The position numbers and the translations under genes were made by a program. The notes under the pieces are model-generated. The model saw only the letters and a list, made by a program, of their open reading frames with translations. It had not been told where the DNA came from and did no database searches. This document shows, piece by piece, positions 32,147-35,616 of a DNA stretch of 64,000 nucleotides. Each line of letters starts with the position of its first letter. Position 1 is the stretch's first letter. This DNA is from an uncultured Methanoregulaceae archaeon (GTDB lineage Archaea; Halobacteriota; Methanomicrobia; Methanomicrobiales; Methanospirillaceae): NCBI GenBank assembly GCA_963841015.1, contig CAWJAX010000005.1:32001-96000 (forward strand), in the 5' to 3' direction.

Positions 32147-32725
32147 ATGCCACGCATTATTCACGAATACAGGGAGGAAGTCAGAAAAAAGATTGTCGAA
32201 GCAGCGTACAGTCTTTTTCTCCACAAAGGGTATCACGGTACAACCATGAGTGCTATCGCCGAAGTTCTCGGTGTCACAAAAACGGCACTGTATCAGTATT
32301 TTCCCGGAAAGGAGGACCTGTACGCGGCCGTTGCCGAACATGGTCGTGAGGAACTGGCCGCAATCCTGGAACGATCCTTCAAAAAAAGGGATTTGCGAAG
32401 CGGTAGTGAGGTTCTTTTTGATACCCTTGCCCGGTACACCCCCCAGTTCAGCGGCATTTATTCAGAGATGATGATGCTTGCTATGCATAACGAACGGATC
32501 CGGAACCTGCTCCATGAAGACCGGATTGAGGATATCCGTGTTGTTGAGCGATTTATAACAAGGCAGCAGGAAACCGGACTGGTATCCGGCCAGCTCAATC
32601 CCCGCGTACTTGCGATCGCATGCGATGCACTCATGAACGGCCTTCTCATTGATATTATGTCAGGAATGGATAAAGAAGAGGCAAAAAAGATCTGGATTGC
32701 AGCCGTCACCCAGCTGACGGAATAA
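32147..32725 (+). CDS. TetR/AcrR-family regulator
   Basis: GYHGTTMSAIAEVLGVTKTALYQYFPGKEDL helix-turn-helix. Confidence 0.93.
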   Translation: MPRIIHEYREEVRKKIVEAAYSLFLHKGYHGTTMSAIAEVLGVTKTALYQYFPGKEDLYAAVAEHGREELAAILERSFKKRDLRSGSEVLFDTLARYTPQFSGIYSEMMMLAMHNERIRNLLHEDRIEDIRVVERFITRQQETGLVSGQLNPRVLAIACDALMNGLLIDIMSGMDKEEAKKIWIAAVTQLTE

Positions 32726-32786
32726 AACGATAAACGGCTTCAATTCCAGCTTGTCTTAAAATTAGGGGCTGTACTAGATTCGAGTT

Positions 32787-32863
32787 TTATATATCCCCTC
32801 ACAGCCTCAATGTTTCGAGTTGTTGCATGGGTGTTCCGTAATTAAGCATGAATCTCACACTTC
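32787..32863 (-). pseudogene. C-terminal remnant of an IS1016-type transposase
   Basis: Translates as CE/FMLNYGTPMQQLETLRL*GDI*, matching the recalled IS1016 tail (ECEFRFNxGTPxQQLKxLRxWCGI); contains an indel and an internal stop. Confidence 0.75.
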
Positions 32864-32933
32864 GACGAGCCACTGAGTGTAGCTCAGCCGCCCCAGCCGT
32901 TGACAATCCGCCAAATATCCCCTCTGCCTCACA

Positions 32934-33680
32934 TCACCGCGCCATCAGCGCGAATACGCCCCATCCAAGGTATTCACGCGTGTACGCGGCGTAGCGTTTT
33001 GGTTCCAAAGTCAGTTTGGCTCTAATATCTTTCGCGAGGTCGTCGTCGGGGTTCGCTTCAAGCCATCGGCGCATGGTGAGCCACTTGGCCGCTTCGTACC
33101 TATCCCAGCCTTCCTGGTCAGCCAGAACCATCTCCACAACATCGTAATCGAGGTCGCCGAAAGACGCGAGAAGTTCTGGAAGGATGAGAAAGTCGGAGAT
33201 AGAATTGGCAGAGCATCCCCTGGCAACGTCTTCCGTCGGGGGTAACCGCAGCCAGTAGGGCTCGCCGATGAGGATGATTCCTTCGGAGCGGAGACTCTTC
33301 GCCAAAAGATCGATGGTGCCGACGACTCCTCCACCGATCCACGTAGCACCGAGACAGGCTGCCACACCGACCTTTTCGGCAGCGACGTAGCCGACAGCGT
33401 CGCCATGGATGAACTCAACTCGATCGGCCACTCCGAGTTCTTCAGCGCGGAGTTTCGCTTGCTCGGTGAACAACTGGCTCATGTCGATGCCGACACCCAT
33501 GATTCCGTAATCGCGTGCCCAGGTGCATAGCATCTCGCCCGAACCGCTGCCGAGGTCGAGCACCCGAGTCCCCGATTCCAGGCGCAACACTGCGCCGAGA
33601 GTGGCGAGCTTTTCTGGTGTGAACGGGTTATGGATGCGGTGAGCACTTTCGGTAATGGTGAACATACGTGGGATGTCCAA
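32934..33680 (-). CDS. YjhP-like class I SAM methyltransferase (passenger)
   Basis: DIPRMFTITESAHRIHNPFT, LDLGSGSGEMLCTWARD, GWDRYEAAKWLTMRRWLEANPDDD; TTG start after AAAAGGAG. Confidence 0.9.
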   Translation of the reverse strand: MDIPRMFTITESAHRIHNPFTPEKLATLGAVLRLESGTRVLDLGSGSGEMLCTWARDYGIMGVGIDMSQLFTEQAKLRAEELGVADRVEFIHGDAVGYVAAEKVGVAACLGATWIGGGVVGTIDLLAKSLRSEGIILIGEPYWLRLPPTEDVARGCSANSISDFLILPELLASFGDLDYDVVEMVLADQEGWDRYEAAKWLTMRRWLEANPDDDLAKDIRAKLTLEPKRYAAYTREYLGWGVFALMAR

Positions 33681-33697
33681 TGCACACACTCCTTTTA

Positions 33698-33871
33698 CTA
33701 AGTTGTGTAATAACTGGAATATACCCTTAGTGATTGTAGCAGAGCTGCCGTATTGGGGTGAATATCAAGCAAATTAGCTGCTGATCTTGCGGTAACTTCC
33801 AGCACGAAATATTCAAGCAGCCTAAGTTGAGTATTTTTCTTTAATTTACAATTGTTTCGCTTCATTTTCAT
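33698..33871 (-). pseudogene. N-terminal remnant of an IS1016-type transposase (57-aa mini-ORF)
   Basis: MKMKRNNCKLKKNTQLRLLEYFVLEVTARSAANLLDIHPNTAAL, followed by an unrelated tail; below the ORF-track length cutoff. Confidence 0.85.
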
Positions 33872-33924
33872 AGATTAGCATATTGGCTAATCTAGTACAG
33901 CACCGAAAATTATAAAAAAAATAA

Positions 33925-35616
33925 TTATCTGTGGGTAAAATACGCTCTTACCCCTTTAGAATCTACGACATCAACCTTTACAAACCCGATGCGCTCGAAC
34001 TGGACTACATTCCCCGGTTCATTTTTCACTGCTTGTTCGCAGGCACCCGACATTTCGCCTTCCTGCGTGAGGAGTGTACAGGTAACTGAGTTCTGCACAG
34101 GCAGCCACTGGATGATCGGAGCCTTTGCTGCACGGGCTTCCCCGAGGGATTCCCCGGCATAGGAGAACGTGGGGATGTTTCCGTTCCATGCAATCTTCAC
34201 ATTAAAGAGGTCCTTGAGCCGGACCATCGTTGCATCCTGAGTGATCTCACTTCCTGGCAGGAGAACAGTTCCTTCAAATTTCAGGGTACGGGTACCTCTT
34301 GCAGCATCGCTTGGGTGGAGCATCGCATGTGCAGTATGGGGCTGTGCGCCACCAATGTGTGCAGTTACCGGATCCGGCACAAAGAAATACCGGTTTGCCA
34401 CCGGGTCAACGATCTTCTTGTTTTCTGCATAGAGGTTATCCCACGAGAATGAGATGTCGGTGTCACCGATCCCTATTGCCAGAACGGCATTCTTTACCGC
34501 ATCAGGATTGATCCCCCTCCGTGCAAGAGCACGGAGCGTTCCGAGCCGGATATCATCCCATCCGGTAAAGGTCCCATCGTTGATACCCAGGCGCATCTGT
34601 GAAGTAGAAAGAACAACACCTTCGATCCCCATCCTGCCATAGTGCCGGTAGACCGGCACCTCCCAGCCAAAATGGTCGTAGATATAGCGTTGCCGCCGGG
34701 TGTTTGCAATGTGGTCCTTGCCCCGGATCACATGGGTAACCCCCAGCAGGTGATCATCTGCAACGACCGAGAAGTTCATGAGGGGGTAGACATGCGCTGT
34801 TACCTTGGGATGAGGGGGAGAATCGAGAATTCGGAAGGCGGGGAAGTCCCGCATGGCCGGATCGGGATTGTTGAGATCGGTTTTTATCCGGACGGTCACC
34901 TCCCCTTCCCTGAACGTGTGATCGAGCATCTTCTCCCAGAGCTCGAGGTTTTGCTCCACTGGCTGGTCCCTGCACGGGCATGCAGTCTTTGCCTGCTTGA
35001 GTTCCTTAAAGTGCTCGTTGTTGCAGGTGCAGACATAGGCCCCCCCCCGCCCAATCAATTGTTTGCAAAGATCGTAGTAGAGCGGCAGACGATCACTCTG
35101 CGTGACGGTCTCGGTGATGCCAAGACCGAGCCATGCAATATCTTCGATGACCATTGCATACGCATCGGGATCAACACGTTTCGGGTCGGTGTCCTCTATG
35201 CGAAGGATATACCTTCCACCGTATTGTTTCACGTAGGCATCGTTCAGCACCGCAGCACGGGCATGCCCGAGATGAAGAGGCCCCGAAGGATTCGGCGCAA
35301 ACCGCATTACCACGCCCTGTTCTGCACCTTCCAGATCCGGGAGCCCCTTCCGGTGCTCATGTTTTACAAAAAGGGCATCGTACATGTCAGGGGCAAGGTC
35401 CTGTAGTTTTCTTACCCGATCTTCCGCAGAGAGTGCAGCAACATCGGCAATGGCTTCTTTTGCCAGAACTGCAACTTCTTTTGCCCGTGGGCGAAATTCG
35501 GGGTGGGCACCCATCACCATACCGACCACGGCACCGGCCTGCGGTACACCTCCGTGCTTCACCGCATTCTGGAGTGCACAGAGGAAAAGGAGTTCTTTTG
35601 GGTCATCCCCCGCCAT
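33925..35616 (-). CDS. gltX: Glutamate--tRNA ligase (archaeal)
   Basis: RFAPNPSGPLHLGH, RIEDTDP, HVIRGKDH, QFERIGF. Confidence 0.97.
   Translation of the reverse strand: MAGDDPKELLFLCALQNAVKHGGVPQAGAVVGMVMGAHPEFRPRAKEVAVLAKEAIADVAALSAEDRVRKLQDLAPDMYDALFVKHEHRKGLPDLEGAEQGVVMRFAPNPSGPLHLGHARAAVLNDAYVKQYGGRYILRIEDTDPKRVDPDAYAMVIEDIAWLGLGITETVTQSDRLPLYYDLCKQLIGRGGAYVCTCNNEHFKELKQAKTACPCRDQPVEQNLELWEKMLDHTFREGEVTVRIKTDLNNPDPAMRDFPAFRILDSPPHPKVTAHVYPLMNFSVVADDHLLGVTHVIRGKDHIANTRRQRYIYDHFGWEVPVYRHYGRMGIEGVVLSTSQMRLGINDGTFTGWDDIRLGTLRALARRGINPDAVKNAVLAIGIGDTDISFSWDNLYAENKKIVDPVANRYFFVPDPVTAHIGGAQPHTAHAMLHPSDAARGTRTLKFEGTVLLPGSEITQDATMVRLKDLFNVKIAWNGNIPTFSYAGESLGEARAAKAPIIQWLPVQNSVTCTLLTQEGEMSGACEQAVKNEPGNVVQFERIGFVKVDVVDSKGVRAYFTHR

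Follow-up and report, generated by a model that had tools for sequence, protein, structure and literature searches.

A methyltransferase gene in an IS1016-group shell: a probable stranded deletion derivative in a methanogen genome

Layout of the element between tetR and gltX

The window analysed here, 64,000 nucleotides of contig CAWJAX010000005.1 (positions 32,001 to 96,000; assembly GCA_963841015.1, an uncultured Methanoregulaceae archaeon), holds an intact S-adenosylmethionine (SAM)-dependent methyltransferase (MT) gene enclosed by the remains of an insertion sequence (IS). The element measures 1,140 bp from inverted repeat to inverted repeat and lies, as a first-pass annotation of the window had it, between two convergent genes, a TetR-family gene at 32147..32725 (+) and the archaeal-type glutamyl-tRNA synthetase gene gltX at 33925..35616 (-). 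With a probability of about 0.8, we take the element to be a stranded deletion derivative of a cargo-carrying IS1016-group IS that circulates in Methanoregula and other Methanomicrobiales. Its features are as follows, P0123 being an intact IS1595-family transposase of metagenomic origin.

32757..32764 (no strand): target-site duplication, copy 1, TAAAATTA; matches 33905-33912 at 7 of 8 positions in the window
32765..32780 (+): outer inverted repeat beside the transposase C-terminus (C-end), GGGGCTGTACTAGATT; its first 14 nt equal the ISApl4 inverted repeat (PMC12561309)
32799..32864 (-): decayed transposase remnant, last ~21 codons and stop; 14/21 identical to P0123 residues 195-215
32854..32933 (-): MT 3' trailer, 80 nt, common to bacterial copies; joined to the transposase remnant at GAAGTGTGAG
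32934..33680 (-): intact YjhP-family class I SAM-dependent methyltransferase, 248 aa, from Pfam and PDB matches and substitution rates
33681..33729 (-): MT 5' leader with an AAGGAG ribosome-binding site and a TATA-like GTATATTC; common to other archaeal copies
33730..33743 (+): degenerate 14-nt stump of an inner C-end repeat, from comparison with long forms L011, L027 and L158
33744..33871 (-): first ~44 codons of the transposase gene; 43/45 to P0123, DNA ~75% identical to ISEc69 and ISAba36
33889..33904 (-): inverted repeat beside the transposase N-terminus (N-end); reverse complement GGTGCTGTACTAGATT
33905..33912 (no strand): target-site duplication, copy 2, GAAAATTA (TAAAATTA in a strain variant); adjoins the T8 run 3' of the gltX stop

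The first-pass annotation had described this arrangement as a pair of inverted repeats with a flanking duplication around an intact MT gene that shares its strand with the transposase remnants, and each of these parts is there. The repeats agree at 15 of 16 positions, and the AT-rich 8-bp flanks TAAAATTA and GAAAATTA at 7 of 8; in a ~98% identical strain variant from public runs X1, X2 and X15, a T at 33905 brings the duplication to 8/8. Evidence from public runs (X1, X2, X15 and X16) rests throughout on Logan contigs. Across the 2.28-Mb genome the repeat pattern occurs without mismatch at these two sites only, with the next best site at two mismatches; when up to three mismatches are allowed, 20 matches are found against 23 in a reversed control. 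The two exact sites, the right end with its ~75% DNA identity to known elements and the contigs bridging the junctions together place the pair beyond chance.

The element is a derivative of the IS1016 group of the IS1595 family, the membership first proposed for it. ISApl4, a recently described 712-bp member of the IS1016 subgroup, has GGGGCTGTACTAGA as its inverted repeat and generates 8-bp direct repeats rich in A and T (PMC12561309), and the window ends match that repeat and the AT-rich 8-bp repeat exactly. Scored against GGGGCTGTACTAGA-type terminal repeats, the two ends give 16/16 and 15/16, and the 8-bp direct repeat falls within the 7-9 bp of the group. The third feature of the group, a DDE transposase of ~217-220 aa (DDE_Tnp_IS1595), is present in a relative (locus L158, protein P0123) and reduced in the window to codons 1-44 and ~195-215. 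These are the transposase N-terminus inside one end and the decayed C-terminus inside the other that the first-pass annotation had recognised: the N-terminal peptide (ORF, or open reading frame, 33698..33871, -) is identical to P0123 residues 1-45 at 43 of 45 positions, and the C-terminal one (ORF 32799..32906, -) to residues 195-215 at 14 of 21. Annotated ISEc69/ISAba36-type transposases start and finish with the same peptide motifs, and the segment of the C-terminal remnant is contained in both ISEc69 and ISAba36.

A comparison of the ends and peptides with known IS elements had been suggested, and it points the same way. The right-end 170 nt show ~75% DNA identity to ISEc69 (five E. coli plasmids) and ISAba36 (four Acinetobacter plasmids), with weaker matches in two Neisseria records, for a total of 11 plasmid records. 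These matches needed a distant-similarity search; megablast of the whole element against plasmids returned no match to the ends and a single Azospirillum record, 78% identical over the MT gene. We found no title or abstract joining IS1595 or IS1016 with Methanoregula, Methanomicrobiales or Archaea, a negative limited by the supplements of PMC12561309, which may list relevant IS copies.

The transposase stub at 33698-33871 (-) is still open, encoding 57 aa from its own ATG, and its ORF continues out of frame into the MT leader. Its N-terminal 44 residues are presumably the DNA-binding part of the transposase.

In five relatives (G117, G065, G042, G017 and G049, with tetR 84-91% identical), tetR and gltX lie 66-216 bp apart with neither MT nor IS between them, the empty arrangement that the first-pass annotation had proposed to look for. 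A base-exact empty site was not recovered from these relatives, whose spacers are too diverged and have in common only the gene adjacency and an AAAATTA-containing AT run. The T8 run after the gltX stop is probably the gltX terminator.

Base composition is uneven across the locus, with a G+C content of ~0.60 for the MT gene, 0.34-0.45 for the IS ends and ~0.50-0.55 for the flanks. Such a profile could in principle betray an assembly chimera or bacterial contamination in an archaeal contig. However, contigs of run X2, from an independent study, span 32562-33089 and 33624-34300, thereby bridging tetR to the element and the element to gltX and crossing the deletion junction discussed below, and the element also sits within many other genomes of the genus, some of them single contigs. 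Contradicted on both counts, an artefact of this kind has a vanishingly small probability.

A YjhP-type methyltransferase with a bacterial history

The MT gene starts at a TTG at 33680 that is common to its homologues, giving 248 aa; an upstream GTG at 33689 would give 251 aa (ORF 32934..33689, -). The product is a class I methyltransferase with Pfam Methyltransf_31/25 domains. Its residues 1-247 align with PDB entries 5BP7, 5EPE and 1NKV (E. coli YjhP) over the full length, with E values of 2e-122 to 2.6e-142, the latter for 5BP7, and a glycine-rich SAM-binding motif, DLGSGSG, is present; full-length similarity together with this motif makes it a YjhP-type SAM methyltransferase. No NCBIfam family scored above cut-off. 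A PADLOC match to the MADS defence protein mad2 was rejected, as only positions 273-411 of 492 match (E 2.4e-15), across the methyltransferase domain. E. coli yjhP occupies third place in the strongly tetracycline-induced topAI-yjhQ-yjhP operon (PMC12121999), and its knockout has no growth defect (PMC12096079); the window MT, unlike the operon gene, stands alone in an IS shell, where its leader, with the TATA-like GTATATTC some 45 nt before the start, may supply a promoter of its own. We infer that the enzyme methylates a small molecule, with a portable benefit to the host.

Close relatives of the protein are spread widely. A protein search gave 7,999 matches among 8,000 candidates, and the best 120, at 85-95% identity, have source names as varied as Methanoregula, Methanocella, Desulfocarbo, Pseudodesulfovibrio, Victivallaceae and Planctomycetota. 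Relatives of the MT are encoded on 559 stretches of genome_contigs; our locus comparisons rest on the best 80 of these, with protein identities of 84-95%, 14 of them archaeal-labelled and 66 other, from more than 20 bacterial phyla. At the DNA level the compared loci are 78-94% identical to the window; the homology breaks off 2-66 nt before the ORF and 1-181 nt after it. No conserved neighbour gene was found among the best 80 loci, where the largest cluster not overlapping the MT gene, present at four loci, resembles group II intron maturases. At four of the 80 (bacterial loci L107, L117, L143 and L144), ORFs resembling group II intron maturases or reverse transcriptases adjoin the MT gene. 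Group II introns that target attC sites are known from integron arrays and would fit such neighbours.

The MT gene is under purifying selection. The comparison took in 97 full-length copies, 94 of them intact (three loci are counted twice in this sample under two identifiers), and the ratio of non-synonymous to synonymous substitutions (dN/dS) against the window is 0.04-0.38. Since dS is mostly 0.1-0.7, synonymous sites are unsaturated even between domains. The intact ORF and the purifying selection together indicate that the gene is kept by selection. In runs X1, X2, X15 and X16 the summed contig depth over 32912-33679 exceeds the flank depth by a factor of 10-200, for DNA as for RNA libraries, so that many members of these sediment communities carry MT relatives.

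The cargo is a YjhP-type gene that in part of the bacterial loci has integron-cassette borders, both points overlooked in the first-pass annotation. Of 79 loci, 20 have a GTTRRRY core no more than 90 nt upstream of the MT gene, 16 of them at exactly 48 nt, as GTTAGGC in bacterial loci, and an attC-like hairpin of 60-100 nt with complementary R''/R' boxes follows the gene in 5 of 79. Bacterial MT copies bordered in this way resemble the cassettes of integrons and of clusters of attC sites lacking integron-integrases (CALIN arrays). Integrons have been reported in Archaea (PMC9668308), and the Bathyarchaeota-labelled locus L123 shows an attC-type context around its MT gene. From these observations one might suppose that the gene reached the window as an integron cassette by integrase recombination and that the IS parts are bystanders. 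The window itself makes this very unlikely. Its trailer ends 80 nt past the stop, before any attC and without an R''/R' pair, and is fused to transposase coding sequence at the 10-nt microhomology GAAGTGTGAG; homology to bacterial loci L088, L099, L143, L116, L123, L137 and L146 stops at this point, 32854-32855. An inverted-repeat-bounded unit with an 8-bp duplication is, moreover, typical of IS1016 elements and not of a cassette junction. In contrast to integrons, including the archaeal ones (PMC9668308), the window locus has neither attC nor integrase, and the vehicle is a DDE transposon. In the available main text of PMC9668308 the words methyltransferase, transposase and Methanomicrobi are absent; its supplements may list relevant cassettes.

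Long forms, the intact transposase and the origin of the short form

In a search of 31 relatives, window positions 32759-33743 recur at 82-95% identity, with matches in four of the 12 genomes that represent other families of the order. The combined MT/IS module is present, at several sites, in at least 30 of the 107 other genomes of the genus, a lower bound because two candidates were scored per genome. Copies that match the element at 90-95% identity occur in genomes with gltX at only 71-84%. The N-terminal part of the transposase with its N-end is found in 8 of 27 loci with the module, and IS1016 parts stand beside the MT gene in 13 of the 80 loci, 11 archaeal-labelled and two on bacterial-labelled contigs of metagenome-assembled genomes, the latter as fragments only. 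The window genome itself (five contigs, 2.28 Mb, 94% complete) has a single copy, which might suggest that a foreign gene was inserted once into a dead IS already resident at the site. We regard this as extremely unlikely, since the trailer/transposase-tail and leader/inner-end junctions recur at 82-95% in no fewer than 30 further genomes of the genus, in other families and at several loci, and such recurrence contradicts a one-off event.

Several of these copies are longer than the window element. Long forms L027 (genome G105) and L029/L072 (G075), at 1,865-1,875 bp, run from an outer inverted repeat through a transposase tail fragment, the MT gene, a degenerate second IS end and a transposase gene to the far inverted repeat. 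In both L027 and L029 the two repeats are present, with A-rich 8-bp flanks that match at 7/8 and 8/8, respectively, and the transposase ORFs encode 182 and 199 aa (NCBIfam IS1595, 1.8e-30). An insert of ~190 bp (L027:2573-2800, L072:1274-1530) disrupts the gene just beyond residue ~181. Two diverged copies of a coding segment '...AKRVLRKYNGI...' flank the insert, which may be a small element that entered the gene or the scar of recombination between two variants of the IS. Among six other copies with both ends, four have a flank duplication of 7-8/8.

Intact transposases are found in relatives. Protein searches yielded full-length 219-aa transposases at 86-93% identity, with P0123 representing 106 member sequences; P0123 matches Pfam PF12762 (DDE_Tnp_IS1595) at 2.4e-29 and is 74% identical to ISAba36. 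Of 80 metagenome loci retained, L158 (2,625 bp) alone encodes a transposase of this type at 98% identity, with 79% for the runner-up. In window orientation, the order in L158 is the 5' end of the MT gene, leader, degenerate inner end, intact transposase, N-end repeat, AT-rich flank and a gene for an AI-2E-family transporter. That flanking gene is 94% identical to its counterpart in G065 and 84% to that of the window genome, which places this autonomous-looking form in a close relative of the window genome. For L158 no empty site was recovered, as the G065 contig ends there and the spacers of G000 and G117 have diverged. The first-pass annotation had called for a search for an intact transposase; the window genome, at 94% completeness, gave no match to the IS1595 family (PF12762), and the same genus supplied one in L158. 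IS1595-family genes as such are present in 39 Methanoregula genomes out of 108; their open frames measure 190-316 aa, and there are as many as 12 matches in G094. When 30 IS1595-family loci were compared, only two, both adjacent to an MT gene, exceeded 70% identity to ISAba36; the rest, at 27-47%, belong to other, resident archaeal subgroups and not to the IS1016 type.

The long forms also revise the original reading of the window, in which the cargo had replaced the transposase core. In L027, L029 and L158 the MT gene lies outside the transposase gene, with a duplicated outer end on one side and the degenerate inner one on the other, and the core was lost afterwards by deletion. Aligned with the long forms, the window sequence follows the inner end as far as 33743; from 33741-33744 onwards it is transposase gene, starting near codon 44. 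About 550 bp are absent, and the break falls at a 3-bp microhomology (33741-33743). This junction appears in none of 237 other sequences and was found at this locus only. Other shortened copies (L095, L032, L011 and L102) have breakpoints different from that of the window, and such copy-by-copy deletions are what local decay would be expected to leave. The simplest reading of these comparisons is that a long form inserted here and then decayed in place. A contig end in run X15, not tied to this site, leaves the element at 33741 and continues into transposase sequence.

That the element is non-autonomous and carries an intact MT gene, as first claimed, holds, since only stubs of its transposase remain. 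The further claim that it moves in trans is unsupported in that form, given the unique junction, the single copy and a genome with no IS1595-family transposase. On the same question of other copies, a pattern search of the whole window genome found no second repeat pair, and the proposal to look for copies elsewhere was borne out by the module in other genomes of the genus. Because the genome is without such a transposase and the short form sits at one site only, we conclude that the window copy is a stranded derivative, now immobile in this genome. The rival to be weighed most carefully treats the 1.14-kb short form as a mobile insertion cassette (MIC) in its own right, brought here in trans by a cognate IS1016-type transposase. 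Its outer repeats are intact (16/16 and 15/16) with an 8-bp duplication, an intact cognate transposase exists in the genus (L158/P0123), and there are other independently shortened copies (L095, L032 and L102). Against delivery stand the junction confined to this locus (0/237), the single copy in a 94% complete genome with no match to an IS1595-family transposase, and the fact that every short copy examined has a different deletion. On balance we judge it unlikely.

Our preferred reading, a long form that decayed where it had inserted, would give the following history. The MT gene would have come from the bacterial gene pool, where it is nearly gene-sized mobile DNA, partly with integron-cassette borders. 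The parent would have been an element of ~1.7-1.9 kb made up of a good outer inverted repeat, a C-terminus fragment of ~20 codons, the MT gene with a ~50-nt leader and an 80-nt trailer, a degenerate inner repeat, a 219-aa DDE transposase gene and a good far repeat. Decay of the inner repeat would leave the transposase the two good outer repeats to work on, so that the MT gene would travel along. Such a parent would have inserted by transposition at the AT-rich TAAAATTA beside the putative gltX terminator, as the 8 duplicated bp show, and comparison with the long forms shows what would have followed, a ~550-bp deletion at the 3-bp microhomology that removed the interval from the inner repeat to transposase codon 45. 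The deletion probably took place at this site. Selection would then have retained the MT gene in a genome without an IS1595-family transposase, leaving the copy immobile.

Several observations weigh against this history. A complete parent, with both outer repeats and an intact transposase, was seen at no single locus examined: the L158 contig stops inside the MT gene and shows the intact transposase, the MT gene and one repeat, and L027 and L029 have both repeats and a broken transposase. The order of events at the site is deduced solely from the uniqueness of the junction. A strong target preference for A/T runs weakens the flank duplications as evidence across copies, the flanks of L032 are inverted and not direct, and those of L011 match at only 6/8. 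By a simple test, 59 of 79 bacterial MT loci are without a cassette core, and the MT-matching contigs in RNA libraries stem from many organisms. Eleven loci (L012, L013, L016, L026, L028, L030, L035, L036, L037, L038 and L040) have in common a left flank of 160-220 bp and a right flank of 100-340 bp, beyond which homology stops; they represent either one inherited locus or an MT module inside a larger repeat-bounded unit, and the spread in the genus may therefore be partly inheritance and not independent transposition.

Further details of the relatives are recorded here. Three pairs of loci are identical, L033 and L128, L029 and L135, and L027 and L080. In the eleven loci just named, a ~115-nt sequence occurs in direct orientation on both sides of the MT module (77% between left and right in L040). 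In L011 (G009:C16) the module is in tandem duplicate, in the order MT, inner end, tail fragment, MT, and a contig of run X1 joins 33743 to 32816, the same joined form. In G024, from another family of the order, a whole decayed IS at high, host-like G+C stands beside the MT gene (L014:2340-3035). The MT gene of L014 is still 88% identical to that of the window, which, next to an IS at host composition, indicates long residence with selection on the cargo only.

Known kinds of element and the meaning of the find

The kinds of element involved are already known. Structurally the window copy is an MIC, and the parent would be a cargo-carrying IS or a reduced pseudo-compound transposon. Like the MICs MIC231 of Bacillus cereus and those derived from TnXax1 in Xanthomonas (PMC4337579), the window element has a passenger gene inside IS-related inverted repeats and no transposase of its own. 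MICs are by definition mobilisable by a cognate transposase and are usually multi-copy (PMC4337579), whereas the window element has one copy and a unique junction, keeps N- and C-terminal transposase stubs and resides in a genome with no IS1595-family transposase. With ISApl4 (PMC12561309), ISAba36 and ISEc69 it has in common the terminal repeat GGGGCTGTACTAGA and the AT-rich 8-bp duplication, the cognate P0123 being 74% identical to ISAba36; those are ~710-bp bacterial IS elements without cargo, in contrast to the window element with its gene cargo, lost DDE core and methanogen host.

The parent finds its nearest likenesses elsewhere. In the pseudo-compound transposon Tn7560 (PMC12561309), cargo is bracketed by directly oriented IS1016-type sequences, there direct copies of ISApl4, and the whole unit moves via its outermost ends, as the parent would. 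The parent differs in that one 'IS' is a ~90-bp end fragment, the inner repeat is degenerate and the cargo is a single gene. An IS with passenger genes is termed a transporter IS (tIS) in ISfinder, and there are examples among IS1595-family members. With one transposase and one passenger gene in one repeat pair the parent would resemble a tIS, although a second, decayed end stands between its passenger and the transposase gene.

What is new in this instance is an IS1016-subgroup element in methanogens, a cargo with partial integron-cassette borders and its genus-wide spread; our literature search found no paper describing an IS1016-type element with MT cargo in methanogens. The find follows gene flow from Bacteria to Archaea in two vehicles at base-pair level, in which an integron cassette gene was apparently picked up by a DDE IS and spread through a methanogen genus. 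The first-pass annotation was right that ORF-level calls do not reveal the element: such annotation overlooks IS shells of this kind around what appears as a lone 'SAM-dependent methyltransferase'.

We also entertain, tentatively and as less probable than not, that the parent is a currently active cross-domain shuttle, a gammaproteobacterial-kind IS1016 transposon that captured a former integron cassette, still transposes in Methanoregula and confers a benefit through the MT gene. The intact transposase cluster with its 106 member sequences is what suggests continuing transposition. Such a shuttle would have brought the cassette into methanogens that lack integrons, and the benefit would be strong and host-independent in anoxic sediments, for example through methylation of a toxic small molecule. 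If true, this would explain the 83-94% DNA identity of the MT gene across two domains and more than 20 phyla.

YjhP appears to be among the most promiscuous genes without an assigned function, under purifying selection in hundreds of unrelated genomes. With solved structures and cultured hosts (Methanoculleus sediminis, Methanocella arvoryzae and E. coli) at hand, its function is directly testable. For the methanogens, the stranded copy and its relatives may illustrate one route by which bacterial genes enter and spread among them.

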